Sequence record: OQ420740.1
Strand: one strand, 5' to 3'
DNA from: Escherichia phage B9-1
Length of the DNA: 64,000 nucleotides
The notes below the pieces were generated by a model. The model was not told the DNA's origin. It worked only from the letters and a program-made list of their open reading frames with translations, and searched no databases. Position 1 is the stretch's first letter. The number at the start of each line of letters is the position of its first letter. Both the position numbers and the translations under genes were made by a program. Below, in pieces: positions 13,514-30,123 of this stretch.

Positions 13514-14190
13514 TGGCAATAAATAGGAAAGATGCTGCTGTAAGATCCTTTATAGAAAAAATAATGAGGGACTACCACACCAGTATCAGGGCCAGAGTTG
13601 TCAGTGTAGATTACAGTATCCCTTCTGCAGCCGTGCAGCCGATAGCTGAAACCACGTTTGATGACGGAGATGTTGAGAGATACCCTCTTATCTATGATGT
13701 TCCAATCCAGGTGATGTCTGCAAACAGTGGGAAGGCAAGGTTAACACTACCAATTAAGGCTGGGGATGTTGTAGGGTTGCAGTTTTCAGAGAGAAATGAA
13801 AACAATAACGATGATCAACAAACTCACGGCCTATTTCCAGGGTGGGCAATAACCTCTGTTCATTCAGACTCGAATGCTTTGCAGATCGATCCTGATAATG
13901 TAGAGTTATGGAATGATAGGGTTTATTTTAAGCTAACACCCTCTGGTGATTTTGAGCTTCAAACACCTGGTGGGACATTACGGTGCGACAGTAGCGGGGA
14001 GTTTTCTTTCACCAACGGGGCTGCCAATTTACGAGCTGCTGTGGATGGAAATATCAGAATGAATGGTGCCACAATAGACCCATCAGGTAGAATTATAACG
14101 GCTGCTGGTGTGGATTTGGACTCATTCTATGCAGAATATAAAGGTCATACCCACTCTTGCCCTGATGGCGAGACAAGTGGACCGCACTAA
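13513..14190 (+). CDS. baseplate central spike, gpV-like (candidate)
   Basis: 225 aa; OB-fold-like segment (LTLPIKAGDVVGLQF) and C-terminal GHTHSCPDGETSGP resembling the His-rich metal-binding apex of P2 gpV-type spikes. Confidence 0.5.
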   Translation: MAINRKDAAVRSFIEKIMRDYHTSIRARVVSVDYSIPSAAVQPIAETTFDDGDVERYPLIYDVPIQVMSANSGKARLTLPIKAGDVVGLQFSERNENNNDDQQTHGLFPGWAITSVHSDSNALQIDPDNVELWNDRVYFKLTPSGDFELQTPGGTLRCDSSGEFSFTNGAANLRAAVDGNIRMNGATIDPSGRIITAAGVDLDSFYAEYKGHTHSCPDGETSGPH

Positions 14191-14202
14191 TAGAGGGCTT
14201 GA

Positions 14203-14919
14203 ATGGCTACGCTTTATAGTGATATATTGATGGACCCACAGACAGGTGATTTGGCGATAGACAAAGGTCTTGAGTTGATAGATTCAAACCAAGTAAGTCT
14301 GCGCCAGCGCCTGTGGATGAGGTTTAATACATGGAAGGGGAGCTGGTACTTTGATGAGTTGTTTGGCTTCCCTTATATGGACTTTCTCAGTAAGAAGGTC
14401 ATGAAGACTGTTCTTGATAACAAGATTATGGAAGTGGCAAGACAAGAGCCAGATGTGCTAAACATCATAAACTTCCAGTCCACTATGGATCGAAGATCGA
14501 GGACATACCAAGCGTTCTTTGAGGTTGTTACCAAGGAGAACGAGATTGTAAGGCTGGCTTTCGTAGGTCTTGATCAGTTTACCTACCCACAGCCTGATGA
14601 CGGGGCAACCTCTCTTTGTGATGATGAAGGTTGGATTAAGTGGGCTAATAAACTGTACTACCTGATCAACTTCAGATTGCCTAGAACTGGAGATGCTACG
14701 TGGTGGAACCAGTATGCTGGTCCTGAGATGGAAAACCCGATCCCTGTAGGTTCTCTGTTGACTCAGGATAAAGATCTGCTGATGACTGATGCAGAACAAA
14801 CCATTAACCGCAATACCTGGACGCTTGCTCCAGATGAGCGCGAATATTCTGGTGTTATTGCTACCTCTAATGATGAGGCTATTGCCAACCAGTCTGGTCG
14901 TGCTATTGATGTTAACTAA
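14203..14919 (+). CDS. baseplate wedge protein, gpW/gp25-like (candidate)
   Basis: 238 aa directly after spike gene; N-terminal segment (GDLAIDKG...SLRQRLWMRFNTWKGSWYFDELFGFPY) resembles W/gp25-type baseplate proteins as recalled. Confidence 0.35.
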   Translation: MATLYSDILMDPQTGDLAIDKGLELIDSNQVSLRQRLWMRFNTWKGSWYFDELFGFPYMDFLSKKVMKTVLDNKIMEVARQEPDVLNIINFQSTMDRRSRTYQAFFEVVTKENEIVRLAFVGLDQFTYPQPDDGATSLCDDEGWIKWANKLYYLINFRLPRTGDATWWNQYAGPEMENPIPVGSLLTQDKDLLMTDAEQTINRNTWTLAPDEREYSGVIATSNDEAIANQSGRAIDVN

Positions 14920-14928
14920 GGAGAAATC

Positions 14929-15597
14929 ATGGCTGTAGCTTATCCTACAATACCAATCCCAGATCTTGAAGATGCAGAAACAGTCTTGAGTGATGACTTC
15001 TTGGTTGTCAACCAGACTGACGGGACAAGAAAGGCTAAGATTGATGATGTTGTCAATGATCTTAGCATTACTAAAATAGTTTATTTCACAGAGGGCGGTT
15101 ATCTTAAGAGCAAGAAGGATTTTGCTTATGATCCGGAAACTAAGCGCTACTACACATGGAATGGAGATTATCCTAAAATAATCCTCCCGGATTCTACTGT
15201 AGAGGGTGCCGGAGGTGTGTCTGCAAAAGCATGGTCTGTTTTTGGAGAGCTTGCTGCAACTTCTTCAGGTAGGATAGTTGATTACGGCTCTATTGGTGGT
15301 CAACTTGACATGGATCTTGACGTTGCAGACACGTTTAAAGTTCGGCTCACTTCAAACACCACAATCTCTTTTGAAAATCAAACAGAAGGGCTCGACGGAG
15401 TGGCAAGAACTATAACTGTATGCATAACGCAGACCTCGGGTGGTAACAAAGTTTATTGGCCTGACAATGTTAAATGGGCCTACGGAAGAGATCCTATCCT
15501 AACATTTACAGCTGGTGCAACAGACATTTTCAAGTTGGAAACATATGATAATGGACTAACTTGGTACGGGGCACTGATCATCGCAGGAGCTATCTAA
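14929..15597 (+). CDS. tail fibre-related protein sharing an N-terminal domain with the 1479-aa fibre
   Basis: N-terminal about 100 aa align by eye with N-terminus of ORF 18232 (DDFLVVNQTDGTRKAKIDDVV vs DDYLVVQQPDLTRRVKIGDVV; FTEGGYLKSKKDFAYDPE vs FKEGGKLNGPMDFAYFEE). Confidence 0.5.
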   Translation: MAVAYPTIPIPDLEDAETVLSDDFLVVNQTDGTRKAKIDDVVNDLSITKIVYFTEGGYLKSKKDFAYDPETKRYYTWNGDYPKIILPDSTVEGAGGVSAKAWSVFGELAATSSGRIVDYGSIGGQLDMDLDVADTFKVRLTSNTTISFENQTEGLDGVARTITVCITQTSGGNKVYWPDNVKWAYGRDPILTFTAGATDIFKLETYDNGLTWYGALIIAGAI

Positions 15598-15598
15598 G

Positions 15599-18196
15599 AT
15601 GCGTATTCAACACAACATTGATAACGTATTTCAGATGATCGAGGGGCACAGGAAGTGCCTCGATAACAACACAGGTATTACCAATCTCCCTACACAGAAC
15701 AAACTGGTAAACCAGGATGGACTTATAGCGTCAGGTTGGTCAGGAAGTAAGATAAACAATGATTGGGCAATGCATGAGTCCCAAGCTGTGTTGATTCTGG
15801 GATACATTGAGGCATACAGGGCATCAAAAAGCGATTTTTATCTAGACAGGGCCAAAGAGGCTTGGGAAGCCTACAACAGTCATCTTCTGGGCGTATATGC
15901 AGTAGAAAGTAAAATGCAAAGATTGTCCCACTACCCGTTATCCACAGATGGGGTTCCATCGCATGGTGGGTTTAAAGATGTGGTTGTGTCTTTTAACAAA
16001 GGTAGAGGAAAAATCCCAGCAGGATCCCCGACATGGGGAGAATACTTGGACAAGGCTTTTCAGGCGTATAACGGTGTTTTAGGAAGAAACACTGTAGACT
16101 CTGATGTTTACGGCGGCACAGATGCTAATCCTAATTGGACAACTTCCGGATTAAGTTGGTGGGTTGAGTGGTATATAGCATGGGATGGTAACCGCTATTG
16201 GGCCAACGGTAGCATAGCCGACAGTGGTCATACGTCTGCAGAGTTCGGCACAATCCAACTGCAAGATAAGGGTGTTACAGGCAACCATAAGGTCACCTAT
16301 TGTGTGAGATTGCCTCAAGAGCAGGGAGGATCGGTGATACCTGCTGGATCCCCTGTAATTGTAAATCCTATAAATGTGGTTGCAGACAATCAAGCCCCAG
16401 AGTTAGACGGGGAAGAGATGTGGTGTGACGCTTGCTATCAACTCTATACCTTGACAGGTGAGGAAAAGTATTACACCGCGTTTAAGCAGTCTTACAACAA
16501 GCTGCTTAATTTCAGTGATATAAATGCCTACGACAAACTGTTTAGAAAAACCACGTTAATTAAGGCACCGTTCACGGATGGTACTTGTCTCGTCGCAGGA
16601 ACAGTTCCTGTCATGAGTAGGGACAGTGACGGGTATATCAATTTTAGAATGAACGCTCGCCAGCCTTGCGAAATAATCCAAAAAGGGACTACATACAAAA
16701 TAGGCAGAGATGCTGAAATTGTTATGAATTTCGGAGGGGAAGGGGTTCTGTTCCAGCCACATTTCATCCTTAATGATGGCAACAATAACAAAAAACAGTA
16801 CAGAATAGGTGTCCCTTTCGGAGGAGCAGAGGTAACAGAAACAGTTGCCAAGGTTACTGATTTTGTAGAGGTGGTTGGTAAAGACGGTAACCCATATCTC
16901 TTGCCAAAAGAGGAAAACATTGCCGTAAGCGGTGGCGCTAGTGTTAGTATGCAGTATGATACCGACATTTACAACCACTCTGACAACTTCACCCGTTGCA
17001 ATATAGTAAAAGGCAAAGTAACTTTCAATTTTGGAAGAGAGATTTCTTTAAACTCAGTAACTTATCGATCAGATGATGAGATGGTAAGGGTCAAATTTCT
17101 TGACAAAGACCGTTGGTTATGGTATGCTGATCTATATGCCACTAATGGACAATGGATAACAGAAACTCTTACTCTGGGAGATTTTAAACTAGACCCTACA
17201 CAACCTCATCACACCGAAGAGGAGATTAAACCTTTCTTTGCTAACACCAAAGGGATCACCTCCGTAGATTTCAGTCTGAGCGACAGGCAGATAGGCAATG
17301 GCTTGTTTGATCTGTATTGCGTCAACACACTGCCGCAATTTTATATTGCTGATAGGGATGCTTACCTGATCTGGTTTAGTGTATGGATGGCAAGCAATAC
17401 AGAATCAACCGCTAAGGTTGGCGATTGTTATGTCAGAAACTACAAGCAAGGTGCATACAGGCACACGCCGGGTGTGTTCCCTGCCGGAAAGGTGATAGAT
17501 AAGGAAAATTATCTCTTAGAGGAAAGGCCAAGTTGGCCCTATCCTGGTATGCAATACCCAGCAGTCTACTGCATGGGTGCAGAAAACATAGACCGCCATA
17601 GATTGTCAAATACAATAGGCTTTCTGTATGACTCTCAAGTCTGGTATAACAATACATTTAAGACAGAGGGTCCAGTTGCCTCACGTTATGTATGGCAGAG
17701 AGGTAATGAAGGGTTGACTGGTTGGTGGGAGATGGTAGATAACTCTAAACTCCAGTCAAGATCTTTTGTTGCTGCGTGCCGCACAATATATGAGCTAAAG
17801 AAACATAAAGAGCCTGTTGATGAAAGACTATTCCTGTTCTGCCAGAAATGGGCATGGTTCCTCAACAGATTCCAGTCATCCCATTCAGGAAATTTGCCTA
17901 CAGACTTTAACACCTCTGGTGGATACTCTTATCAAGATAGAGGAGATAGGATGTGGGTGGTAGGTGAATGGCTTGCAGGTTGCTGCTGGCTAGGTCTGTG
18001 CGGGTATTCAGAAACAATACCTCAAATAGATATTGTTGTAGAAGCCTGTATGAAGCTACTGCAAAAGCACCACTTTATTAATGGGGATAATGTTTTAAAT
18101 GGCTGCTGGGCAGTTTCTGATCCGGTAGGCTATCACTCTGGCGAAATCCTTCGCGGTCTTGGCCTTTATGCTCAATACCGTGGATTGTACCTTTAA
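15599..18196 (+). CDS. large tail-associated protein, candidate polysaccharide-degrading enzyme
   Basis: 865 aa, Trp/Tyr-rich; segments such as AVLILGYIEAYRASKSDFYLDRAKEAW and CDACYQLYTLTGEEKYYTAFKQSY resemble helical-hairpin motifs of (alpha/alpha)6 glycosidase folds; coupled to the upstream adaptor-like ORF. Confidence 0.4.
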   Translation: MRIQHNIDNVFQMIEGHRKCLDNNTGITNLPTQNKLVNQDGLIASGWSGSKINNDWAMHESQAVLILGYIEAYRASKSDFYLDRAKEAWEAYNSHLLGVYAVESKMQRLSHYPLSTDGVPSHGGFKDVVVSFNKGRGKIPAGSPTWGEYLDKAFQAYNGVLGRNTVDSDVYGGTDANPNWTTSGLSWWVEWYIAWDGNRYWANGSIADSGHTSAEFGTIQLQDKGVTGNHKVTYCVRLPQEQGGSVIPAGSPVIVNPINVVADNQAPELDGEEMWCDACYQLYTLTGEEKYYTAFKQSYNKLLNFSDINAYDKLFRKTTLIKAPFTDGTCLVAGTVPVMSRDSDGYINFRMNARQPCEIIQKGTTYKIGRDAEIVMNFGGEGVLFQPHFILNDGNNNKKQYRIGVPFGGAEVTETVAKVTDFVEVVGKDGNPYLLPKEENIAVSGGASVSMQYDTDIYNHSDNFTRCNIVKGKVTFNFGREISLNSVTYRSDDEMVRVKFLDKDRWLWYADLYATNGQWITETLTLGDFKLDPTQPHHTEEEIKPFFANTKGITSVDFSLSDRQIGNGLFDLYCVNTLPQFYIADRDAYLIWFSVWMASNTESTAKVGDCYVRNYKQGAYRHTPGVFPAGKVIDKENYLLEERPSWPYPGMQYPAVYCMGAENIDRHRLSNTIGFLYDSQVWYNNTFKTEGPVASRYVWQRGNEGLTGWWEMVDNSKLQSRSFVAACRTIYELKKHKEPVDERLFLFCQKWAWFLNRFQSSHSGNLPTDFNTSGGYSYQDRGDRMWVVGEWLAGCCWLGLCGYSETIPQIDIVVEACMKLLQKHHFINGDNVLNGCWAVSDPVGYHSGEILRGLGLYAQYRGLYL

Positions 18197-18200
18197 CATA

Positions 18201-18220
18201 GGGGGCTGTTTGCCCCCTTT
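18201..18220 (+). terminator. weak terminator / attenuator hairpin
   Basis: Stem GGGGGC / GCCCCC, loop TGTTT, short T run (TTT) only. Confidence 0.3.
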
Positions 18221-18231
18221 CAGGAGAAAGA

Positions 18232-21200
18232 ATGGCTGATATTAAAGTTGTCAGAATTGAATCTCTTCCTGCCACTACCGCAGTGACAGAGGATGATTAC
18301 CTGGTTGTTCAACAACCAGACCTGACCCGTCGTGTGAAAATTGGCGATGTTGTCCATGTGGATGGGACTGTTTCTCATGTAATCTCCTTTAAGGAAGGTG
18401 GTAAGTTAAACGGCCCAATGGATTTTGCCTACTTCGAAGAGGAAGATCTATACCTGCGTTGGAAAGGCGAATTTCCACACACTGTTCCTGCACTGTCTTC
18501 ACCATATTCTGATGGTGGGATTACCGATGCTGCATGGATGGTATATACAGACCCGTCCTTAAGGGAGGAGCTGGAGTCTACCATTGGTGCGTCTATGATT
18601 ATGACAGCCGAAGGGCAGTCTGTCCAGGATGTAATGGATGTTACTGTTCAGACAGCCAACGATGCTAAAGCACTTGCACAGCGGGTAGATTTTGGTACAG
18701 TACATACTGTGGGCGATGTTGTTCACCTTGTCAACTTTGTTGGCCCTGCAGTTATTGAAGAGGGACGAACCACTAACTATCCTTCCGTAGCAGCTGGTGA
18801 AAAATTTCTGAATGGTGTGGTATCTCGTCGTGATACTACAACTGTTGATGGTATTTTCCGTGGCGCTACTTCCGGAGCCATGTATACCATTGCAGTAACA
18901 AACGGTGTGGTAACAACAAAAAGAATAGCCCTTCGTGATGAATTTAAACGCCTGGAGGCAAATAATCCAACAAGAACAGTTATCCGTGCTGGGGATGATG
19001 TAAACACAGCAGGGTACTTGCAGCTTGATGCAACAGGCCGTTGGGGTATGTGGAACCAACAGACAGCTTCGTGGCAACCTCTTGCTATAGAGCAGGGCGG
19101 CACAGGAGCTAGAGATGCCGCAGGTGCACGCATTAACCTAGGTGCTTTCTATAAGCAACGTGCAGCCCTTGAGGCAAATTTCAATATCAATAACCTGACT
19201 GGTAATCAGGATGGTGTATACTACCAGCCTATGACTGCTAATGCAACTGAGGCAAATGGTTACCCTGCGGGTTCTGGTGCGGGTCACCTAATTGTTTGGC
19301 AGAACAATGCTAACGGCGGCACAGGCTGTCGTCAGGAATACTACCCATTCTCTAACGTAGATGTTTGGTATTTGAGAACCTATCAGGCCAACACAAACCA
19401 GTGGACTGCATGGCAGCCGATGGTCAGACCTCGTAACGATGAGACCTTTAGATCGCACATCGGTCTTGGGTCTAGGAATTCTCCTACCTTCGGGCACCTT
19501 TACTTATCTCAAAGTTCTGCTGATGTCAAGTCGGCATCTGGCATTGTTAACGGGGACAAGTACAGTGCTGACGGTGTCCTTGAGCATGGGTATAGGATCT
19601 ATTCCGAGGTAAGAAACGACAATAAGGCGTGGTTAACAATCCACCTGCACAAAGGTGCAAAAGGATCTGAAACTCATAGATATTTAGGTTTCCGCGAAGA
19701 CGGCGTATTAGACTGCCCTAAATACATGCAGGTTGGGGATCTTACTGGTCAGCTGACAAACTGGGGACTCGGAGAATGGATCCGTAGTTCAGGAGCAGAA
19801 AGAGGGTTCTGGGGATCCAAGAAAGCCGCCAAGATGGTCATCTGGGATGGCGGGATGGATGAATCCGGTAATGGTACTCTAGAATGGGGTGTTTATAACA
19901 ACCGGAAGGCCAAGTGGGAACCTTTACCTCAAGCCGCAGGTGGTACTGGGGCTACAACTCTAGCAGATGCTCAGAATCTGTTCAAAGTTCCTATAGCAGC
20001 AGGTGTAAAAGACTTCTTAACACTGCCAAGAACCGCAGGAATGGAAGATGGGAAATACTACCCGATCATCGTCAGAACAGATCCGTACTATGCTCCAGCA
20101 ACTGGCACTGATATTACCATAGTTACCAGATCGTCATCTGGAAATGACCCTATGAACTGTGCTACCTTACAGTGTCACTATAGAACTGGAGGATGGACAG
20201 ACAGAGGAGGCTCTTTCTACGGGGTAGTAAATTTCTACCAGAATGAAAAAGCAATTCTTGGGATGGTTGCTCCAACAAGGGGTAAACAAGAGTATGTTGC
20301 TTTCTATGTGGAGGCTCGTGCTTTCCCTGTCAGCATATACGCAAGTAGAAATGTTGTCGAAGTGTTTACCAGAGAGCAAGATTATCAGGTCGGCTCTGTA
20401 ACAAACAATCAGGACGGTGTTAAGTTCGTTTCACCTCTCCAGTCGGCAGACTTGAATCTTGCTATTCTTGGAGATAACAATACAAACACCAGACCTATTG
20501 TTGACTTCAAAGGCACCTCTGGGTTCTACACTGGCGGCGGCACACAGTGGCACTATATAGGCACTGCTGAGCGCTATGCAGTGATGAGCAAAATGAACAT
20601 GCCAAAAGTCGAGCTATGGGCAGACGGTCTTGACTATTTGTGCTACGGCAGTCCTAGAAAGGCGTTATTCTCTAATGCAGGATTCCAGTGTGCATCAGAC
20701 GGGACAGAAGACCTGACTAACGGTACGTTTACCTCTAAATGCGGTAATGGTGCTGGCCTCAAAGGACAGGCAGAGTTCAGATCTACTCCAGAAGCTGGTC
20801 AAGTTATTGTTCGTGATGTTGTAGGTTCTGCTCACAGATTCTACAATTTCAACAAAGATGGTACTTTCTCAGCACCGGGTGGTTTTGTATGTCATACTGG
20901 TGCAGATTGGAACAATCAGTTCGGGAATAATAATCCGTCCAAAATACTGGCTGGCAATGTCAACGGACCTGAAGGTTCAATGGTTGTTGGCGGGTTGTCT
21001 GTGGCATTTTCTGGAAACTATGCTTTCCAGATGGCAGGCCGTTTAGATCAGCTGTACACCCGTTCCATAGAGCAGGGTAACCACAGAGCGTGGAACAAAG
21101 TTATTCAGCACCGTGGTCAAGGGTTGGGTACTAGTGACCTTAACGATTACAAAGCGGATCGCGAAGGTATTTACCATCAAGAGGCAAATGCCAACGCCAC

Positions 21201-22671
21201 AGCGGAAAGACACTATCCACCAGGGCAGCAGATGGCTGGTACGCTGATCGTGCTTAGAAACTCTGCCAACGAGGGTACTGGGTGTGTCCAGATATATAAA
21301 ATGTATCTTGGTGGGACGTGGGAAAGGTATTATAATAACACTGGCAGTGGGATGAACTGGAGCCCTTGGAAGAGAACTAGCTTCCCAGAAAGTACAACTG
21401 CCCCAGTTATGCCAGATCTGTGGCTACCTTTAACCTCTAACCTGAAACCTGTGTTAGGTGAGGGGGAGATGATCTTCTCCAGACCTTCTACCGCAACCTA
21501 TTTCACTAAGCGTGGTGTTATGGCTGTTGCACAAGCAAACCAACCACGTTTCGAAAGAGATGGGCTGCTTATTGAAGGGCAAAGGACAAACCTAATGCTT
21601 AATAGTGAGGACCCAAGTAAGTGGGGGGCAAGTCAACAGATCACTGTTGGTAGCACTGTAACAAACACTAATGGAACAAAAGGTGCAAGATTTACAGTAA
21701 ACACCATATCCGGTGTAGAAACAACAGCGTTAAACCTAGCTACGGTTCCAGCCACCAGGGGTGCCGATGTAACAGGTGCTGAGAAATTCTGTACTGGGTC
21801 TATTATTGCAAGGGGCGGTAAAGCTCACCAAAGACTGCGTGTAAGATTCGACATGTACGACGGGTCCACCACAGTATTTCAAGGTGATGCTTATGTCAAC
21901 CTGTCAACACTTGAAGTTAAAACAACAGGTGTCGCAGCTGGGAGAATTAAAGTAAAAGCTGAGAGATGGCAAACAGCCGGACCTGCTTGGATAAGAGTTG
22001 TTGCTACGTTTGAGGCAGTGGACTCTGACATGAATATTGGGTGCCAGTTCCAGATTGCCCCACCGGATGGTTCTCAACATGCCGTAGGGGATTGGGTTGA
22101 CGTCGCAATACCTCAGTTTGAGTTAGGATCTTGTGAGTCCTCGTTTATCCCTACAGGGTCTTCACCAGTGACTAGGGCAGCAGACCTTTGTAAATTCCCA
22201 ATGACTGATAATTTAGCACCTAGACCGTTCACCATCGCCGCTACGGTGGATGCCAACTGGAGAGGTTGGGGAAAAGCTCCTAACGCAGCTCCTAGAGTTA
22301 TTGATACAGAGGGCCACCAATCAGGTGCTGCATTTATCATGGGATTTGGCTCTGCAGCAAATATTGCAGAAGATGGTTATCCATATTGTGATATTGGCGG
22401 TTCAAACAGACGTGTCTATGAGATGGCTAAAACACGTAAATTGAAAATTGGGTTCAGGATAAAAGATGACGGTAAAACCTGCTCTTTTGCTAACGGATTG
22501 GTGAGTACGGAAACGCAATCTTCTTGGGAATTCCTGGCAGGAGGCGCTCTCATCCGTCTCGGAGGTCAAACGGCGACAGGTGAAAGACATTTGTTTGGTC
22601 ATATTAAAGATGTAAGAGTTTGGAACTCTGCATTGACCGACACCCAGCTTATGATGGAGAGTGTTGAATAA
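18232..22671 (+). CDS. long tail fibre protein with internal repeats and LamG-like C-terminal domain
   Basis: 1479 aa; N-terminal domain shared with ORF 14929; two copies of a 60-aa repeat (19237-19425, 21181-21377); two QGGTGA motifs; C-terminus ...HLFGHIKDVRVWNSALTDTQL resembles the LamG/concanavalin-like signature. Confidence 0.6.
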   Translation: MADIKVVRIESLPATTAVTEDDYLVVQQPDLTRRVKIGDVVHVDGTVSHVISFKEGGKLNGPMDFAYFEEEDLYLRWKGEFPHTVPALSSPYSDGGITDAAWMVYTDPSLREELESTIGASMIMTAEGQSVQDVMDVTVQTANDAKALAQRVDFGTVHTVGDVVHLVNFVGPAVIEEGRTTNYPSVAAGEKFLNGVVSRRDTTTVDGIFRGATSGAMYTIAVTNGVVTTKRIALRDEFKRLEANNPTRTVIRAGDDVNTAGYLQLDATGRWGMWNQQTASWQPLAIEQGGTGARDAAGARINLGAFYKQRAALEANFNINNLTGNQDGVYYQPMTANATEANGYPAGSGAGHLIVWQNNANGGTGCRQEYYPFSNVDVWYLRTYQANTNQWTAWQPMVRPRNDETFRSHIGLGSRNSPTFGHLYLSQSSADVKSASGIVNGDKYSADGVLEHGYRIYSEVRNDNKAWLTIHLHKGAKGSETHRYLGFREDGVLDCPKYMQVGDLTGQLTNWGLGEWIRSSGAERGFWGSKKAAKMVIWDGGMDESGNGTLEWGVYNNRKAKWEPLPQAAGGTGATTLADAQNLFKVPIAAGVKDFLTLPRTAGMEDGKYYPIIVRTDPYYAPATGTDITIVTRSSSGNDPMNCATLQCHYRTGGWTDRGGSFYGVVNFYQNEKAILGMVAPTRGKQEYVAFYVEARAFPVSIYASRNVVEVFTREQDYQVGSVTNNQDGVKFVSPLQSADLNLAILGDNNTNTRPIVDFKGTSGFYTGGGTQWHYIGTAERYAVMSKMNMPKVELWADGLDYLCYGSPRKALFSNAGFQCASDGTEDLTNGTFTSKCGNGAGLKGQAEFRSTPEAGQVIVRDVVGSAHRFYNFNKDGTFSAPGGFVCHTGADWNNQFGNNNPSKILAGNVNGPEGSMVVGGLSVAFSGNYAFQMAGRLDQLYTRSIEQGNHRAWNKVIQHRGQGLGTSDLNDYKADREGIYHQEANANATAERHYPPGQQMAGTLIVLRNSANEGTGCVQIYKMYLGGTWERYYNNTGSGMNWSPWKRTSFPESTTAPVMPDLWLPLTSNLKPVLGEGEMIFSRPSTATYFTKRGVMAVAQANQPRFERDGLLIEGQRTNLMLNSEDPSKWGASQQITVGSTVTNTNGTKGARFTVNTISGVETTALNLATVPATRGADVTGAEKFCTGSIIARGGKAHQRLRVRFDMYDGSTTVFQGDAYVNLSTLEVKTTGVAAGRIKVKAERWQTAGPAWIRVVATFEAVDSDMNIGCQFQIAPPDGSQHAVGDWVDVAIPQFELGSCESSFIPTGSSPVTRAADLCKFPMTDNLAPRPFTIAATVDANWRGWGKAPNAAPRVIDTEGHQSGAAFIMGFGSAANIAEDGYPYCDIGGSNRRVYEMAKTRKLKIGFRIKDDGKTCSFANGLVSTETQSSWEFLAGGALIRLGGQTATGERHLFGHIKDVRVWNSALTDTQLMMESVE

Positions 22672-23003
22672 TGAATACTTTTACCCTTGGGTTTACTGGT
22701 AGGGAGGATTTTAACGGTTTCATGGACGAAATCGGCTTTTACGAGAATGAGGTGTTGCAAAACACCCTTCTTGTAGAGGTTGTCGGGTTCATTTACACAG
22801 AAACTGAAGACACTTATGAGGCCGAGGATGAGTTTGGCAACATGGTTGTCTACCCAGTTTGCGAGAAAAGTAAATTGTTTTATGTCAACGTTCTGGCTCT
22901 GGACGAAGATGCAGAAAATATCATCTCTAAAAGCGGAAAAATTGTAGATCCGATAAGGTTGAACATGTTCGACCCATCAGTATCTACCTTGGAAGCACTT
23001 TAA
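22671..23003 (+). CDS. hypothetical small acidic protein, possible fibre chaperone
   Basis: 110-aa ORF overlapping fibre stop (TAATGA), followed by terminator. Confidence 0.4.
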   Translation: MNTFTLGFTGREDFNGFMDEIGFYENEVLQNTLLVEVVGFIYTETEDTYEAEDEFGNMVVYPVCEKSKLFYVNVLALDEDAENIISKSGKIVDPIRLNMFDPSVSTLEAL

Positions 23004-23016
23004 AGTATAAAGTATT

Positions 23017-23047
23017 GCCCTCGCTTCGGCGAGGGCTTTTTGTTTGT
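23017..23047 (+). terminator. rho-independent terminator
   Basis: Stem GCCCTCGC / GCGAGGGC, loop TTCG, then TTTTTGTTTGT. Confidence 0.75.
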
Positions 23048-23108: not shown

Positions 23109-23699
23109 ATGTTTTTATGGGAAAGACCTAGATATCTTCCAGATATTAGATTGGAGTTGCTGGCAGATATTGTTACGTTTAAAAGCCCGTTTACAGGTAA
23201 GACGCAAAAAGTAACCTATGCCACGCCCAACTGGAAAGGAACTTTGACGGTTTCCAATATAAGTGAGTCCCAGCTATTGGAGCTTAAAAGTTTTGTTGAT
23301 CAGGTTTACAAAGATGGAAACATTTTTCTTATCAAGGCTTATGGTCATTCAGTTACTTCCAATGAGCCAATCGCTCTAGGACCAACTGGTAATGACGATT
23401 TTTTGAAGACGGTTGGTTGGGAACCGAACAGAGATATAGTCAGGGCTGGGGATAAAATATCTGTCAATGATGAGTTGAAAGTTGTGACATCCTCAGTGCG
23501 AAGTGATGGTGTGGGGGCAGCTGTTATAAACATATCACCAAGACTTAGAAAACCTATTGCCGCAGGGGATACTATGAAGATAATAACTCAATCTCCGAAG
23601 GGTAGATTTCATATCAGGGATCTCTATAAGATTAAGCAAAAGGTTGATGCTATGCAGAAAGGTGATAATATAGTTATCAACTTTTTTGAGGATTTCTAA
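23109..23699 (+). CDS. distal tail protein (first gene of lambda/GTA-like tip cassette, candidate)
   Basis: 196-aa ORF with RBS GGAGG; first of a 196/183/141/1279-aa set whose sizes and order resemble GTA g12-g15 and lambda M-L-K-J. Confidence 0.4.
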   Translation: MFLWERPRYLPDIRLELLADIVTFKSPFTGKTQKVTYATPNWKGTLTVSNISESQLLELKSFVDQVYKDGNIFLIKAYGHSVTSNEPIALGPTGNDDFLKTVGWEPNRDIVRAGDKISVNDELKVVTSSVRSDGVGAAVINISPRLRKPIAAGDTMKIITQSPKGRFHIRDLYKIKQKVDAMQKGDNIVINFFEDF

Positions 23700-23700
23700 G

Positions 23701-24252
23701 ATGATAAGAGCGCCATTAGATAATTTATTTCTTGAAAAGCTAGAGCTTGATAGTGTTGAGATCTTAATTGCCGCAAAGCTAGAGCTGCCAACAGGAACTG
23801 TCAGGGTGTGCTCAGGCACTGGTGTTGTGGTGATTGAGGGGCAGCATTTTATAGGGATAGGTGGATCAGCAACATTGACTGCTGTATCTGAGAAAGATGC
23901 CACCAACTTTGGGTCTGTGGTAGCAACATTGAACGGGTTTGATCCCAAGTATGTAGGTGATCTGCTGAAGACGGAGTATTCGGGTTGTCGTGCCACGTTG
24001 TATATCACGGCTATGGAGAATGGTTTACCTGTTACAACCAATGGCTTGTTTGACGGCCTTATAACAGACATGGCTATTCAGACAGGGGAGAATAGTGCTT
24101 TGTCCATATCCATATCTTCCATCTTCAACAGCTGGTTAAGAGGTTTTCCTTATCGATACACAGAGGAGAGCCATAGCTCAAGAAACGATAATGACAGATT
24201 TTTTAAATATGTGGATCAGGTGGCAAGCCGCCCGATCATTTGGGAGGTTTAA
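23701..24252 (+). CDS. distal tail protein (gpL / DUF2163-like position)
   Basis: ATG 23701 right after upstream stop; 183 aa; Gly-rich beta-type composition; call is from position only. Confidence 0.35.
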   Translation: MIRAPLDNLFLEKLELDSVEILIAAKLELPTGTVRVCSGTGVVVIEGQHFIGIGGSATLTAVSEKDATNFGSVVATLNGFDPKYVGDLLKTEYSGCRATLYITAMENGLPVTTNGLFDGLITDMAIQTGENSALSISISSIFNSWLRGFPYRYTEESHSSRNDNDRFFKYVDQVASRPIIWEV

Positions 24253-24677
24253 TGAGCACACACCCTCGTTTAGTGGACTGGCAAGAAAGATTGTGGAAAG
24301 TGTTTGACGAAGAAGCCACCGTCCCGTTTGAATGGGGATTCCACGATTGCTGCACTTTTGCGGCTAAGTGTGTTGATGCCCAATACGGAACAGATTTTCT
24401 TTCTAACTTTGAAGGAACGTATAAAACAGAGTTGGAAAGCAAAAGATGGTGCATGCTTCGTTTCAAAACCACACATCTGCCTACTATTTTTGATCTCTTT
24501 TTGACTCGACTGGATACTCCTAAACAGGTTCAGCGTGGTGATATTGTTATTTTCGAAGGTCTGAACGGGCTCACCGCTGGTGTGTTCTGGAACAACCAGA
24601 TTTGGGCGAAAGGTGATAAAGGGATCTTTATGTTCGACATGAAAGATTCTATCGTTGTTGATGTCTGGAGGTATTAA
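24252..24677 (+). CDS. small NlpC/P60-like tail protein (gpK / GTA g14-like, candidate)
   Basis: ATG 24252 overlaps upstream stop (TAATG); contains WGFHDCCTF (candidate catalytic Cys in a D-C context) and GDIVIFEG; about 141 aa as for phage NlpC-family tail peptidases. Confidence 0.35.
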   Translation: MSTHPRLVDWQERLWKVFDEEATVPFEWGFHDCCTFAAKCVDAQYGTDFLSNFEGTYKTELESKRWCMLRFKTTHLPTIFDLFLTRLDTPKQVQRGDIVIFEGLNGLTAGVFWNNQIWAKGDKGIFMFDMKDSIVVDVWRY

Positions 24678-27600
24678 TGCCAATTGCAATGATTGATAAC
24701 ATCGTTGCTTCTGCAAGATCTTCGAGCTATGACTGGAACGCATCCAAGGCAGCTCTGGCTGACAGCCTGAACACTGTTACCACCAGAACCCTTGATAAGA
24801 TTTTCGAAGGCAACAAATCTTACAGAAGTCAACAAGATAGACAAAAACTTCTCAGATCTTCTGCTGCACCTTGCTCTGTAGTATATGGGAAGACACGCAC
24901 ATCTGGATTGCTTGCGTTTTTAGAGCAGGACAGGGACAGAACCCTTCATTGTGCTATTGTTCTTGCCAATCATCCCTTGGAAGGTATAGAAGATATACTT
25001 ATCGACGGTAATCCTATTTCCTCGTATGGGGATTTGGTATCGTGGGAGTTGCATAATGACAGGAAAACCTCTGATCCTTTCATGGGCACACACTGCCCTT
25101 CGTGGTCACCAGACATGATAGGTAGAGGGATCAGTTGGCTACGTGCCAGCTTTAAGTTTGACCCTAACAAGTTTCCTTTTGGGTTGCCAAACGTTACACT
25201 CGTCAAGGTTGGTAAAAAATGTTATGATCCTCGTATCAGTAAAGAGGTGTATACCAACAACGCTGCCTTGGTGATTCTGGACTATCTAAGAACGTACCTT
25301 AAATGTCCTGACGAAACCATCAACTGGGAGTCCTTCAAGGAAGCTGCCAACATATGCGACGAGGCTGTAAAAAACGCGGACGGAACCAGTGAGCGCCGTT
25401 ACACCATTAATGGTGAGTTCGACATGGACGAAGCACCAGCAAGTATTATGGCAGAAATGCTGAAGGCTTGTGGTGCAGACCTTAGCTATGTAGCTGGCAA
25501 ATACGGTCTGCTGGTAGGTGCATACTATGGCCCGGCAACAATGACACTGAGTGAGGACTGTGTTTGCGGTGAGGTTAAGATCTATCCTGAAGCCTCCTTC
25601 GACAAAAGATCAAACACAATAACTGGGAGATTCACCAGTCCAACCAAAGGGTATTCTGAAACAGACTTCCCATCGGTGTTCGTACCTGAATGGGTAGAGA
25701 AGGACGGAGAAAGAAAGATAATTGATATAGATTATCGTTTTGTTACCAGTCCTTATCAGGCTCAGCGTGTTTCCGCAATATTCTTAAGACGTGCCAGAGC
25801 TGGCAGGATTATTGAAGTAACCTGCAATATGAGGGGTTTTAAATTTAAGCCTGGGCGTTACGTTACGATGGACCTCCCAAGTATTGGTATAGTGGGCCAA
25901 GAAATGAGGGTTCTTGAATGGGAGTTCACCAAAAAGGGCGGTGTCAAGGTAAAACTCCGTCAAGATGCTAAAGAGTGGAATGATGCCACAGGGCAACTTC
26001 CGGATTCTGGAGATGTGGATATTCCGATATCCCCGTCCGGTGTAGCTCAACCGCAAAACTTCAGATACTCTGTTCTTCAAGCTGGGGAAGTAACTCATGG
26101 TGTTTTGGCTTGGGACAACGTTGGAACTTATGCTCAAAATATTGTGCAGGTAAGAAAGAACGGAGAGATTATTTGGACAGCACAAACAGTCGAGCAGTTT
26201 GTCCGCGTAGAAGGATTGACCAAAGGGTCATACACAGCAACCGTGGTTGCAACATCTTATAAGGGTGGTGTATCTCCAGAAGCCTACTGCGAGTTCAACA
26301 TTCAAGCACCTGAAGCTCCTGTTTCTGTAGAAGTTAAGCAGGGATACTTTGCTATCACCTTGATTCCGCACAGCAGGGACTTAGCAAGTGTAAGCACCCA
26401 GTATGATTTTTGGACATCTGGTATGACAAGGTTGCCGGACACAAGTGATGCAACCGTTACTTCAAAAGCCACCCGTATGGGTGTTGGTTCAACTTGGACA
26501 TCTGAAGGTCTGCAGAACGATAAGATTTATTATTGGTATATTCGAACCACAAACGCTTTTGGTAGTTCTCAGTTTGTAGAATGCGCTGCACGCTGCTACA
26601 CCTCTATTGAAGATTTGATGCCTCAGATAGATGCTGAATTTAAAAAGACAGAAACTTATAAAGAGTTGATGAGCACTTTAGATTCCTCTATCGAGGAGGT
26701 TGAAAATCGTGTCACAGAGCTTAACAAGTACATGGACGGAAGGGTAGATGAGGCATTCCAACAACTTGGAGATAGGATAGGTGCGGTAGTTACAGAGACA
26801 ACTCAGAAGTTTGAGGATGTCAATGGAAATATCACAGCTCTGGATAGGAAACTTGTTGCTGCACAGAACAAGTTCACCAACGATCTGAACACTGAAAGTG
26901 GAAGACTGGCATCCCTGATCGAGACAACCAATAAAGCAACCACTGATCTTCTGAACAAAAAGACAGAGGCTTTAGACGAGAAATTGGTTGCAGCCAAAGG
27001 GGAGTTGGTAGAACAAATAAGTGGTGTGGAGAGCGGATACCTTGCCGGAGATAAAACTCTAGATGGCAAGATCAATACCCAGAGAACGGAACTTGATGCA
27101 AGCATCTTAAGCACCAACCAGGCGACAGTGGATCTTCTCAACAGGACATCTGAAACTCTGGATCAAAAGATCAGTCAGACAAACGCGACGGTATCTAAGA
27201 ACTATACCACCCTTGATGGTAAGATAACTACCGCAAAAACTGATCTCAATACCTTGATTGCCAATACCAACAAGGCCACCACAGATTTGTTGAATCAGAA
27301 AACCTCTGCACTGTCGGAGCAGATAACTTCTGCACGTGGGGAAATTTCTACCAACAAACAGGCGATTAAGGATTTAGATGGGAAGCTGACCTCCACAAAA
27401 ACAGCACTGGACGCTACAATCTCCGATACCAACAAAGCAACCGTGGATCTTATTAACGGCACAGCGTCAGCTATTCGTCAAGAACTTGCTGTTGCTAAGC
27501 AGGAGATCATTGATGATGTCGGTGATGTGTCAGAGCTTAGAGCTGCAGTAGCTACAACATCTAAGGCTGTGACAGACTTAGAGGGCAAAGTAAATGCTCA

Positions 27601-28516
27601 ATGGGGCACAAAAATACAGGTAGACTCCGCAGGGAATAAGTATGTGGCAGGTATCCAGTTAGGCATGGAAGGCTCTGGAGGCCAAGTTCAGTCATATTTC
27701 ATGGTTAGCGCAAACAACTTTGCGGTATACAACCCAGGCAATGGAACAGCAACCCTTGCTTTCGCAATCAAGAACAACCAAGCGTTCTTGAAAGACGCTT
27801 TTATAGAGAACGGCACGATCTCTTCTGCCAAGATCGCGCAAGAAATTTCGTCAAACAACTACGATGGCAATGGGTACCACAAATACGGTTGGTATATTAA
27901 CAAGAACGGGCACGCCCAGTTTATGGATGTGTGGGTGAAAGGTAACATCAACGCTAGTGCAGGTAACTTCACAGGGGCAGTTAACGCCACCAGTGGTACC
28001 TTCCGTGGGGATGTTTATGCCAACAATGGTAGCTTTAGAGGGACCATAGATGCAACAGGAGGTACATTCCGTGGACGTGTAGAAGCTTCCGTTATCCGTG
28101 CTAACCAGTTCGAAGGTGCGATTGTTGCACACAGGACTTACGGAGATTGTGCTCCAGTATATAACTCGCAGCAAAGGGTTTGCCGTTGGAGGTGGAGATA
28201 TGTGGACAACGTGCAAGGCCAAGGTAAAAACGTAACATTCTTCTTTAAACTGAACGGTACACTTGCTAATTCTCAATTAAACGCGTGGATAGCAGGTCAT
28301 CAGCTGCTTGCTGGCAAGAAGTATTTTAATAACAACGATGGCATGTGTGCAGTTGGGATAACAGGTCTAGGTGAACAAACTATAGACATTATTATCGAGA
28401 TTTACACACCCTGGTCAACAGGGAACGTGACAGGAGTTACAATATCTTGTCCTACAGTCGTTGTAAGTCGTTCTAACTCAAGTTTCCAGGGACCTTGGAA
28501 CGAGTCTCACGACTAA
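24677..28516 (+). CDS. central tail fibre / host-specificity protein, lambda J-like (candidate)
   Basis: 1279 aa; four tandem 45-aa repeats in a helical stalk (about 26830-27600); C-terminal segment QWGTKIQVDSAGNKYVAGIQLG...FMVSANNFAVYNPGNG resembles the conserved region of J-type host-specificity proteins as recalled. Confidence 0.5.
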   Translation: MPIAMIDNIVASARSSSYDWNASKAALADSLNTVTTRTLDKIFEGNKSYRSQQDRQKLLRSSAAPCSVVYGKTRTSGLLAFLEQDRDRTLHCAIVLANHPLEGIEDILIDGNPISSYGDLVSWELHNDRKTSDPFMGTHCPSWSPDMIGRGISWLRASFKFDPNKFPFGLPNVTLVKVGKKCYDPRISKEVYTNNAALVILDYLRTYLKCPDETINWESFKEAANICDEAVKNADGTSERRYTINGEFDMDEAPASIMAEMLKACGADLSYVAGKYGLLVGAYYGPATMTLSEDCVCGEVKIYPEASFDKRSNTITGRFTSPTKGYSETDFPSVFVPEWVEKDGERKIIDIDYRFVTSPYQAQRVSAIFLRRARAGRIIEVTCNMRGFKFKPGRYVTMDLPSIGIVGQEMRVLEWEFTKKGGVKVKLRQDAKEWNDATGQLPDSGDVDIPISPSGVAQPQNFRYSVLQAGEVTHGVLAWDNVGTYAQNIVQVRKNGEIIWTAQTVEQFVRVEGLTKGSYTATVVATSYKGGVSPEAYCEFNIQAPEAPVSVEVKQGYFAITLIPHSRDLASVSTQYDFWTSGMTRLPDTSDATVTSKATRMGVGSTWTSEGLQNDKIYYWYIRTTNAFGSSQFVECAARCYTSIEDLMPQIDAEFKKTETYKELMSTLDSSIEEVENRVTELNKYMDGRVDEAFQQLGDRIGAVVTETTQKFEDVNGNITALDRKLVAAQNKFTNDLNTESGRLASLIETTNKATTDLLNKKTEALDEKLVAAKGELVEQISGVESGYLAGDKTLDGKINTQRTELDASILSTNQATVDLLNRTSETLDQKISQTNATVSKNYTTLDGKITTAKTDLNTLIANTNKATTDLLNQKTSALSEQITSARGEISTNKQAIKDLDGKLTSTKTALDATISDTNKATVDLINGTASAIRQELAVAKQEIIDDVGDVSELRAAVATTSKAVTDLEGKVNAQWGTKIQVDSAGNKYVAGIQLGMEGSGGQVQSYFMVSANNFAVYNPGNGTATLAFAIKNNQAFLKDAFIENGTISSAKIAQEISSNNYDGNGYHKYGWYINKNGHAQFMDVWVKGNINASAGNFTGAVNATSGTFRGDVYANNGSFRGTIDATGGTFRGRVEASVIRANQFEGAIVAHRTYGDCAPVYNSQQRVCRWRWRYVDNVQGQGKNVTFFFKLNGTLANSQLNAWIAGHQLLAGKKYFNNNDGMCAVGITGLGEQTIDIIIEIYTPWSTGNVTGVTISCPTVVVSRSNSSFQGPWNESHD

Positions 28517-28621: not shown

Positions 28622-30112
28622 GTGGCTAAGTATGGATTGACAGAGGCTGGTTTCGTTATACCAACTCTAAATGACCTAATCGTTGAAACTAAGCAAAGCC
28701 TGATCCGTGCTTTTGGCGAAAACTTCAACGTACAAAGTAACTCCGTTGCAGATAAGCTGACCACTATCTTCAACGAGCGAGAGTATCAACTTATTCTTAT
28801 GGCAGCATCTGTATACGCATCGCAGACGCTGTATGGGGCAGAAGGTATTTACCTTGATGAACTTCTTGGAAGGCAAGGTATTTATCGAAGAGGCCGTTCT
28901 AAATCATCAGGTACTTGCCAGTTGACAATTAACACAACTGTGCCGTACAATATGATTTATGATTCCAAAACCTACACGCTGGACAGTGGCAACTTTGTTC
29001 TTAGCAACGATGTGCAGGTGGCGGGAAATCTTATTGCTCACAGAATAAACGCTCCAGACCTAAGAATTGGGAAATACAACTTTCAAATTACCAACCAGAC
29101 AGATGGAAGTATCAAAACAAAAAGTCTGGTTTTAACAGATAAGGCTCTGGACTCTTCTGATTTGCCAAGCTTTTACGGCGAGATTAAGCAATTCATTGTC
29201 GATAATACAACCCTGCTGAATGATGATTTAATTCAGATAGATATGTTGACAGGGACGTTGTGGATAGGGTACAATTCGAATCTTGATCAAGTTGGACTTA
29301 ATAGCAGGGTAGATTTCAGAGTATCCCCGATTGTAGGGGAAAGAACTATCACCCTAGATGTTATCGCTAACGAGGCTGGTGAGCTGTCAAGAGAGGCAGA
29401 AACCGTGACAACAATGTCACCTACTCCCAGTGGATTTATCAAGCTTACCAACCGAGAAAGATTCAATGAGGGCAGGGATGTTGAGAAAGACTCTGAGTAT
29501 CGCCTAAGAGCTTCCAGCACTAAGCAGTTAACATCTAAAGCTACCCGCCCTGCAATTCTTAGCGCTGTAAGCGAGGTGAAAGGTGTTGAGAAAGTAAGAG
29601 TGTTCTCCAACAACACCGATAAAACGGATGCGAAAGGTATACCACCTTATAAGTTTCAAGTGGTGGTGTTTGGTGGTGCAACAGAGGATATCTGTCAGGC
29701 GCTGTATCAAACCATAGCTTGCACAAACAGAACTTATGGGAATATCTTCTACGATATTACCACATCGGACGGTCAGACTGAAAGGATTTATTACTCCAAG
29801 GCAAATACCTACCGCCTAGATGTAAGAATTACCTACTCAGGTGCTGCGCTTTCCACAACCGAAAAAGATGCCATTGTAGAGGCTCTTTTGCAGGTTGTTA
29901 ACGGACTGGATGTTGCAGATACGTTGTACAATATTCAATTGGTTGGTGCTGCATCGGCTGCTGTGTCAATAGGCAGATTTAACAGACTTGTAATTCAAGT
30001 CAAACCTGTGGGGGCCTCTGATGAAGCTTACACCACAAACGATATTGTTGCAAACATGACTGAGGTGTTTGATCTAGACGAAAGTAATATAACTTTCCAA
30101 CAAACTATTTAA
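28622..30112 (+). CDS. baseplate J-like wedge protein (candidate)
   Basis: 496 aa, GTG start; N-terminal MAKYGLTEAGFVIPTLNDL and later AEGIYLDELLGRQGIYRRGRSKSSG resemble the Baseplate_J family pattern; followed by gpI-like and fibre genes as in P2/Mu. Confidence 0.45.
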   Translation: MAKYGLTEAGFVIPTLNDLIVETKQSLIRAFGENFNVQSNSVADKLTTIFNEREYQLILMAASVYASQTLYGAEGIYLDELLGRQGIYRRGRSKSSGTCQLTINTTVPYNMIYDSKTYTLDSGNFVLSNDVQVAGNLIAHRINAPDLRIGKYNFQITNQTDGSIKTKSLVLTDKALDSSDLPSFYGEIKQFIVDNTTLLNDDLIQIDMLTGTLWIGYNSNLDQVGLNSRVDFRVSPIVGERTITLDVIANEAGELSREAETVTTMSPTPSGFIKLTNRERFNEGRDVEKDSEYRLRASSTKQLTSKATRPAILSAVSEVKGVEKVRVFSNNTDKTDAKGIPPYKFQVVVFGGATEDICQALYQTIACTNRTYGNIFYDITTSDGQTERIYYSKANTYRLDVRITYSGAALSTTEKDAIVEALLQVVNGLDVADTLYNIQLVGAASAAVSIGRFNRLVIQVKPVGASDEAYTTNDIVANMTEVFDLDESNITFQQTI

Positions 30113-30123
30113 GGCGGTGAGAT

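Follow-up and report, generated by a model that had tools for sequence, protein, structure and literature searches.

The window analysed here is a stretch of 64,000 nucleotides (nt) from Escherichia phage B9-1 (OQ420740.1), an rV5-like coliphage (Vequintavirus), and the element in question is a sequence of about 105 residues with which two of its tail proteins, the homologs of rV5 gp43 and gp41, begin. Between 14 and 23 kb, the window is 96.5% identical to phage ECP26 and 93–94% identical to many Vequintavirus genomes. The three genes of the locus lie on the plus strand, 3′ of the genes for baseplate hub and spike and of a sheath-initiator-like gene (14203–14919) and 5′ of the wedge genes. Open reading frame (ORF) 14929–15597 encodes the gp43 homolog (222 amino acids (aa); orthologous to rV5 ORF43) and is preceded by an AGGAG ribosome binding site 7 nt 5′ of its ATG. 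The protein matches the profile of the gp43/phi92 gp140 family (phrog_7760, E = 2.6e-118) over its full length (residues 1–221). ORF 15599–18196 encodes the gp42 homolog (865 aa; phrog_2871, “tail protein”), and ORF 18232–22671 encodes an allele of gp41 (1479 aa; phrog_6578), a long tail fibre. All three proteins, gp41, gp42, and gp43, were detected in the rV5 virion by proteomics (PMC3606486).

The first-pass annotation of the window had noticed that about 100 N-terminal residues of ORF 14929 and ORF 18232 can be aligned. Both ORFs exist as described, and the alignment is confirmed by formal comparison. With BLASTP, residues 8–105 of gp43 match residues 7–105 of gp41 (38 of 99 positions identical, 38%; one gap; 71.6 bits; E = 2e-18), and all other high-scoring segment pairs between the two proteins are noise (E > 1). 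The Smith–Waterman score of the two N-termini is 176, compared with 27.4 ± 5.0 for 5000 shuffled sequences (z = 29.6). Residues 1–45 alone give z = 11.5 and residues 46–105 alone z = 18.1, and for each of these two segments, none of 5000 shuffles reached the observed score; the identity is well above chance level. The similarity ends at about residue 105 in both proteins. A third copy was not found in the window by tblastn in six frames with either N-terminus as query; a weak local match to the first part of the sequence within a wedge gene (29078–29122, E = 0.4) was treated as chance. At the DNA level, the two copies are 50.5% identical in a codon alignment, and their longest common word is 9 nt. 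This low identity and the lack of longer shared words indicate an old duplication and not a recent gene conversion. Hence, the duplication that had been considered is supported, and the two N-termini are paralogous.

As judged from alignments with relatives, the shared module is composed of two separable parts. Part 1 comprises about 45 residues (residues 1–45; plus strand 14929–15063 in gp43 and 18232–18366 in gp41, where it is 100% identical to rV5 gp41) and appears to be a lineage-specific N-terminal plug peptide. Its consensus is MADxxPTVKVSDLPxATxVxxxDYLVVDQxDxTRKxxIxD, in which L13, D23, V26, Q29, and T33 are invariant in an alignment of gp43, gp41, PVP-SE1 gp51 and gp49, and phi92 gp140 and gp143. 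No Pfam family was found for part 1, and a PDB profile search for a solved structure gave only a spurious match to an enoyl-ACP reductase (E = 0.49), which was rejected. Part 2 (residues ~46–105; plus strand 15064–15243 in gp43 and 18367–18546 in gp41) is a Tail_spike_N head domain (PF18668, TSP1/Gp66 N-terminal domain), with 40.4 bits in gp43 and 40.6 bits in gp41 at a gathering cutoff of 25. Its fold agrees with the solved members of this family (D1/D2 of the CBA120 tailspikes and G7C gp63.1). In gp41, it is followed by a tailspike-type neck, as the matching PDB sequences 9occ_G, 9d84_A, and 9lna_A run on through residues ~105–160. TSP1 and TSP3 of CBA120 were seen in analytical ultracentrifugation to bind both TSP4 and the TSP2:TSP4 complex “via their head domains” (D1-D2); TSP1 docks onto the XD3 platform of TSP4, and the head of TSP3 attaches to TSP2 (PMC8825819). 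By homology to these heads, part 2 is expected to serve attachment. According to the rV5 paper, HHpred finds the gp43 N-terminus similar to that of the P22 tailspike (2VNL) (PMC3606486), and the GenBank annotation of PVP-SE1 gene 49 reads “putative fusion protein similar to rv5_gp043 at N-terminus.” Thus, for phages of this group, the common N-terminus had been noticed before.

Comparison of the relatives indicates that part 1 behaves as a self-sufficient adaptor. Phi92 gp140 is composed of part 1 and the C-terminal domain of gp43, and exactly residues 44–107 of gp43 are absent. In the endosialidases of phi92 (gp143) and phAPEC8, part 1 stands ahead of an unrelated body. Conversely, phi92 gp151 carries part 2 without part 1. 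In KP12, a Klebsiella phage of the Vequintavirinae, three proteins carry part 1 but lack part 2. In one of them, KP12_110, residues ~47–521 are 86% identical to residues 185–659 of a tail protein of the siphophage Webervirus 1513, and the DNA homology begins 46 codons into the KP12_110 gene. The junction is located at the end of part 1; hence, part 1 is exactly what the myovirus lineage retains upon capturing a foreign receptor-binding body. The shared DNA is a two-gene block, the tail protein and a 541-aa downstream gene, with ~86% identity between KP12, a 146-kb myovirus (L007 5582–8785), and Webervirus 1513 (L008 949–4566). Within this block, only the N-terminal anchor differs, with 46 aa in the myovirus and ~184 aa in the ~50-kb siphoviruses.

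A tblastn search with part 1 alone matched 237 phage records. The matches listed are myoviruses of the rV5, PVP-SE1, Klebsiella, phAPEC8, and phi92 types with genomes of ~130–150 kb, and several lineages have two copies per genome. On this basis, part 1 appears restricted to rV5/PVP-SE1/phi92-type myoviruses. When the part-1 profile was used in a word-indexed search for homologs, all that came back were gene fragments of 46–82 aa. For the whole module, an exhaustive hidden Markov model (HMM) search of 1.84 billion representative proteins (E ≤ 1e-3) gave 378 matches. About 20 clusters at 50% identity have the complete module at residues 1–106 of proteins with 214–1599 aa, and most of the remaining matches cover part 2 only, at an internal position. 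The bodies behind the full module include fibres with an S74 chaperone, a fibre with a collar domain, a beta-helix depolymerase, and a SASA esterase. The arrangement as a pair of paralogs is kept in Vequintavirus, Seunavirus, Justusliebigvirus, and Phapecoctavirus. The common baseplate-docking domain suggested by the first-pass annotation stands as far as the domain is concerned: it contains PF18668, is located at the N-terminus, stays constant while the bodies are swapped, and is found in two virion proteins. That it docks to the baseplate is what we infer from this pattern.

In gp41, the opposite end of the protein varies. Residues 1–1050 are 91% identical to rV5 gp41, and the two proteins diverge only in the distal ~430 residues (~1051–1479; plus strand 21382–22668; phrog_1419, E = 1.7e-122), which look lectin-like and have a weak match to Laminin_G_3. 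An invariant N-terminus combined with a variable tip is the pattern typically left by a module that attaches the protein at its N-terminus while the receptor-binding ends are interchanged. Fibres of the gp41 type (RBPseg class TC12) were located at the baseplate wedge in cryo-electron microscopy (cryo-EM) of EmilHeitz and MaxBurger at 7–9.5 Å (PMC12143355). Three further features of this gene were noted. In sequence, the distal tip is weakly but significantly similar to Rcc01080, which is the head spike fibre of RcGTA, the gene transfer agent of Rhodobacter capsulatus (PDB 6tb9, E = 2e-7). A repeat of ~80 residues at ~318–400 and ~969–1049 (secondary BLASTP segment pairs with rV5 gp41, E = 4e-07, 25–28% identity) probably corresponds to the repeated “mobile” pseudo-domains of RBPseg. 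The gp41 stop is overlapped by a 110-aa ORF (22671–23003; phrog_1361, function unknown), which is followed by a strong intrinsic terminator (23017–23036). EmilHeitz, with a gp41 tip of the same lectin type, has this ORF, whereas rV5, with a tip of the S74 chaperone type, lacks it; its product may assist this particular tip as a chaperone or accessory protein and travel with the tip allele.

In gp43, the module is followed by a C-terminal beta-sandwich (residues ~116–222; plus strand 15274–15594). The gp43 family has 38 members in a long (220–226 aa) and a short (~157 aa) form. An AlphaFold2 model of the gp43 monomer (mean pLDDT, or predicted local distance difference test, 74.5) is confident for part 2 and for the C-terminal domain. 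By structural similarity to solved members (T4 gp9/gp10 XD1, TSP4 XD1, and modules of CpaA and StcE), the modelled domain is a beta-sandwich of the XD1 type, and its structural neighbours are those of XD1 and not those of XD2/XD3. We propose that it binds gp42, a glycan, or both.

The gp42 gene starts 1 nt past the gp43 stop (TAA G ATG), and stop and start overlap in the orthologous pairs of PVP-SE1, phi92, and phAPEC8. A fusion of gp43 and gp42 by frameshift or readthrough was considered and rejected, as TAA, 1 nt, and ATG follow each other cleanly and the genes are separate in the window, PVP-SE1, phi92, and phAPEC8. The glycosidase-like gp42 gave no Pfam or PDB sequence match, and part 1 was not found at its N-terminus by alignment; it appears to have no anchor of its own. 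The N-terminus of gp42 is conserved and common to phi92 gp141, and a GenBank note gives 86% similarity between the phi92 and PVP-SE1 proteins. The gp42 N-terminus (15599–15778) and that of a 1878-aa ORF at 38074–43710 (38074–38253) loosely resemble each other by eye when viewed in a multiple alignment (a hydrophobic stretch, then ..LD..xGG/TG..). The intergenic region behind gp42 holds a GC-rich hairpin on the plus strand (GGGGGC-tgttt-GCCCCC, 18201–18217, read from the sequence), located between the gp42 stop and the ribosome binding site of gp41. It failed the T-tract criterion for an intrinsic terminator, with only TTT after the perfect 6-bp all-GC stem, and it could set the gp43–gp42 pair apart from gp41 by acting on attenuation or on RNA stability.

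Homologs of gp42 are found in a wide variety of phages, with 524 records in total. Six distant homologs were checked, and the proteins encoded upstream were compared with the gp43 C-terminal domain by hhalign. In five of the six, a small protein ending in this domain is encoded directly upstream, with stop and start overlapping or abutting (a 3-nt gap in SPFM17): in Rosemountvirus SE13 (207 aa, E = 2e-17), the T7-like Aeromonas podophage Atoyac13 (Atoyac13_09, 270 aa, E = 8e-15), the jumbo phage SPFM17 (157 aa, E = 3e-19), the FelixO1-like phage phiEa21-4 (gene 71, 244 aa, E = 2e-20), and the Vibrio phage D506 (175 aa, E = 1e-17). The N-termini of these five proteins all differ. That of Atoyac13 is the Pfam domain Phage_T7_tail (47 bits, cutoff 25), which attaches the T7 fibres to the tail. 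Together with the window, PVP-SE1, phi92, and phAPEC8, the cassette of a putative adaptor and a gp42 homolog is present in nine of ten lineages. The corresponding slot of KP12 shows no gene resembling gp43 or gp42, and the two small proteins tested there have no gp43-type C-terminal domain. In phiEa21-4 (L014 709–2961), the adaptor gene 71 and gene 70, which encodes the proximal fibre subunit, share ~160 N-terminal residues (31% identity, E = 9e-15). Hence, the use of the same plug by an adaptor and a fibre is not peculiar to rV5-like phages. These N-termini resemble part 1 by eye only (hhalign probability < 1%) and were rejected as its homologs. The simplest reading is that proteins of the gp43 type are adaptors, with a virion-specific N-terminal plug and a constant C-terminal domain that would carry gp42. 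Gene linkage and domain architecture indicate that gp43 probably holds gp42 as an anchor holds its cargo.

Taken together, the shared N-terminus would be a two-part module for virion attachment, with part 1 as the plug followed by the trimeric Tail_spike_N head. One plug would mount two receptor-binding units in parallel at the periphery of an rV5-type baseplate. One unit would be the long homotrimeric fibre gp41, with a distal tip that differs from phage to phage by exchange. In the other, gp43 would act as a short adaptor and hold the anchorless gp42 by its XD1-like C-terminal domain. We assign this reading a probability of about 0.6. According to it, part 1, with or without part 2, would be the physical docking surface, gp43 would physically bind gp42, and the socket would be located on the conserved wedge. 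The best candidates for the socket are the baseplate wedge proteins encoded at 28622–30810 on the plus strand (28622–30112 and 30124–30810; rV5 gp36/gp35 and phi92 gp145/gp146 homologs), with Pfam Baseplate_J in 28622–30112; in phi92, cryo-EM placed the gp143-bearing fibre I on the C-terminal domain of the wedge protein gp145. Neither the cryo-EM study of phi92 nor that of EmilHeitz and MaxBurger resolved the fibre N-termini, and gp43/gp140 was in neither of them considered with gp42/gp141. As part 1 occurs without gp42, gp42 is an unlikely socket. Likewise, the gp43 C-terminal domain is an unlikely socket for gp41, since such a domain is lacking in the two small proteins tested at the KP12 locus, which has three part-1 proteins. 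A wider version of this reading is tentative, and we hold it to be somewhat less probable than even. In it, gp43-type proteins would be plug-swappable universal adaptors whose N-terminus fits the respective tail (part 1, the T7 gp17 N-terminal domain, or those of FelixO1-like phages, Rosemountvirus, Vibrio phages, and jumbo phages), their conserved XD1-like C-terminal domain would carry a gp42-type protein, part 1 alone would suffice in the rV5/phi92 group to mount any receptor-binding body on the baseplate, and gp140–gp141 would account for the unassigned phi92 densities, namely fibre II and the arm or base of fibre I.

Several points weigh against the main reading, in which gp41 and gp43 are mounted in parallel and gp43 holds gp42. 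The modelled part 1 has a pLDDT of only 38–59, with residues 1–22 below ~50 and a hairpin and helix at 24–44 reaching only ~56; such values would fit a segment that folds upon assembly. The XD1 domains of T4 gp9/gp10 and TSP4 have been described as spacers and not as binding platforms, and those of CpaA and StcE as glycan binders, so that by analogy the gp43 C-terminal domain could be a receptor-binding tip whose linkage to gp42 is indirect. A platform of the T4 gp10 type (XD2/XD3) had no Pfam match in gp41, gp42, gp43, or other tail proteins, though gp42 may hide an XD-like domain. With two to three proteins per genome carrying the same plug, either several equivalent sockets or a chained arrangement would be needed. 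In the Serratia jumbo phage PCH45, the sixth of the distant cases and the exception among the ten lineages, the gene upstream of the gp42 homolog does not match the gp43 C-terminal domain, and no separate adaptor is detectable. The gp42-like protein of PCH45 itself (“tail protein I,” 1332 aa; L012 958–4956) has its gp42-type N-terminus from ~residue 262 onwards. The extra ~260 N-terminal residues contain a faint signature of the gp43 C-terminal domain (WPENIQW...FYLFTTQNKGQSY) that is not significant (hhalign E = 0.014), and the protein may be a fusion of adaptor and cargo genes.

The first-pass annotation had also offered an arrangement in which one of the two proteins docks the other. In such a series, gp43 would sit on the baseplate and gp41 would dock onto it, either at its XD1-like C-terminal trimer or N-terminus to N-terminus. 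The fold of the gp43 C-terminal domain does occur in the fibre-attachment region of TSP4-N, of T4 gp9-like proteins, and of the proximal subunit of the KP1 long tail fibre, and the Tail_spike_N heads of CBA120 dock on the N-terminal platform of another spike. In addition, the part-1 copies of one genome are slightly more alike (47% and 55%) than those of positional counterparts, numbers that are too small to rely on and could also result from co-evolution with a shared socket. However, KP12 has three part-1 proteins, and the two small proteins tested in its locus lack the domain onto which gp41 would dock; this domain travels with gp42 and not with gp41-type fibres, even in a podovirus without gp41. 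Moreover, the platforms of CBA120 are XD2/XD3 jellyrolls, whereas gp43 is XD1-like, a type argued to be unable to bind a trimeric partner on-axis if internal (PMC8825819). For gp43 and gp41, docking of one on the other is unsupported and in our view unlikely; the partner of the gp43 C-terminal domain would be gp42. If, instead, gp42 were a common platform into which both gp43 and gp41 plug, it could form the “arm” of a fibre cluster. The conserved gene order gp43–gp42–gp41 and the high conservation of gp42 would agree with this, as would the arm of fibre I in phi92, to which no protein is assigned. Yet the distributions of gp42 and part 1 do not coincide: 31 Klebsiella phage records have part 1 and only six have gp42 homologs, the KP12 slot lacks a gp42-sized homolog, gp42 homologs are widespread in phages without part 1, and the part-1 endosialidase gene does not directly follow gp141 in phi92 and phAPEC8, where a further gene lies between them. 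A platform role of gp42 is improbable.

As a further alternative, gp43 could be an independent miniature receptor-binding spike whose C-terminal domain recognises a glycan on the cell surface, much like this fold in CpaA and StcE; the adjacency of gp42 would then reflect co-regulation or a chaperone-like relationship. This leaves unexplained why the domain is strictly paired with gp42 homologs while the N-terminus is exchanged per virion type, and how the anchorless gp42 reaches the virion. The roles of spike and tether are not mutually exclusive, and we consider a spike role in place of the tether rather improbable. Finally, the similarity of gp43 and gp41 might be due to chance, to low complexity, or to a nucleus for folding or trimerisation that plays no part in attachment. 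Chance is refuted by the alignment statistics (E = 2e-18, z = 30). With membership in a Pfam family, a strictly N-terminal position in ~20 clusters, and a recombination breakpoint at the module boundary, this explanation is hardly credible in its other forms.

Elsewhere in the window and in the database matches, further observations were made. The region 23109–28516 is a tail-tip module of the lambda/PY54 type within a contractile-tailed phage, an unusual combination that is known from the rV5 annotation. Its 1279-aa ORF (24677–28516) matches Pfam Phage_Tail_Tip and the Ig domains of tip attachment protein J, and the three preceding ORFs (rV5 ORFs 40–38) are PY54-like according to the rV5 record. 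The homolog of rV5 gp34 (30810–32882) combines a Calx-beta domain with the N-terminal and TIM-barrel domains of the non-contractile tail sheath protein of phage N4 (E = 1e-79; Pfam NCTSP_N and TIM-barrel_NCTSP). In recent papers, this protein is regarded as the one that binds the N4 glycan receptor. Window positions 14000–23000 have DNA matches in 122 records, all but four of which are at least 90% identical over 9 kb. With 14000–23000 and 14929–15258 as queries, 18–23 records labelled “Campylobacter phage” (host Campylobacter jejuni) match this E. coli phage locus, and among the Campylobacter records listed, the gp43 N-terminus is 98–100% identical at the protein level. The host label looks doubtful, with contamination or mis-assignment as explanations.

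That a conserved anchor at the N-terminus is combined with receptor-binding bodies that can be exchanged is well known, and the finding is not surprising in kind. The two-part anatomy, the minimal plug of 45 residues with a natural chimera junction, and the widespread cassette of adaptor and gp42 appear to be new in the searchable literature. For engineering receptor-binding proteins (RBPs) onto therapeutic phages of the rV5/phi92 type, the minimal adaptor to retain would be ~45 aa, or ~105 aa with the head domain, a limit known to a precision of a few residues, and the KP12/Webervirus chimera indicates that nature uses exactly the junction behind part 1. The pairing of gp43 and gp42 gives a testable assignment for the fibre densities that were left uninterpreted in the cryo-EM studies of phi92 and of EmilHeitz and MaxBurger. 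If true, it would explain how a glycosidase-like tail protein without an anchor can be widespread on very different virions.

Among known systems, the tailspikes TSP1–4 of CBA120 (Kuttervirus) are similar in that several RBPs per virion carry a homologous head of the Tail_spike_N fold as attachment element and in that the structures serving attachment include a beta-sandwich of the XD1 type (PMC8825819). Here, in contrast, a single Tail_spike_N copy is preceded by a 45-residue peptide without a CBA120 counterpart, no XD2/XD3 jellyroll was detected, the XD1-like domain is located at the C-terminus of a 222-aa protein, and the proposed partner is not another tailspike but a glycosidase-like protein without a fibre or spike signature. 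In the N4-like podovirus G7C, the Tail_spike_N protein gp63.1 is the cargo on the XD domains of gp66, whereas here the Tail_spike_N protein gp43 is the proposed anchor. The N-terminal trimeric dome of the P22 tailspike attaches the spike to the virion in a similar way, although Pfam places the gp43 region in PF18668 and not in the P22 head-binding family. Direct relatives are found in phi92: gp140 is a short-form gp43, gp141 corresponds to gp42, and the endosialidase gp143 (“fiber I”) carries part 1. Unlike the proteins of the window, both part-1 proteins of phi92, gp140 and gp143, lack Tail_spike_N. The 2026 cryo-EM paper on phi92 gives no density to gp140 and gp141 and does not mention the shared N-terminus.

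In the T7-like phages K1E and K1-5 and in SP6, the small adaptor gp37 carries separate tailspikes. Like gp43, such adaptors combine a virion-specific N-terminal part with a C-terminal part holding a separately encoded enzymatic RBP. In the anchor-branch system of KP32-type phages, as Latka et al. are said to have described it in 2019, the first RBP provides the anchor and a branching domain, and the second RBP docks by a short conserved N-terminal peptide. Measured against this scheme, an anchor-like N-terminus is found on both gp43 and gp41, a gp10-like branching domain was not found by Pfam, and gp42, with its conserved N-terminus, may dock on gp43, as gene linkage would suggest. To our knowledge, neither a holding domain of the gp43 XD1-like type nor a cargo of the gp42 family is part of the described K1-5, SP6, and KP32 systems. 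Atoyac13_09, in which Phage_T7_tail is combined with the gp43 C-terminal domain and a gp42 homolog is encoded after it, is a direct bridge between the gp43/gp42 pair and the T7-like adaptor systems.

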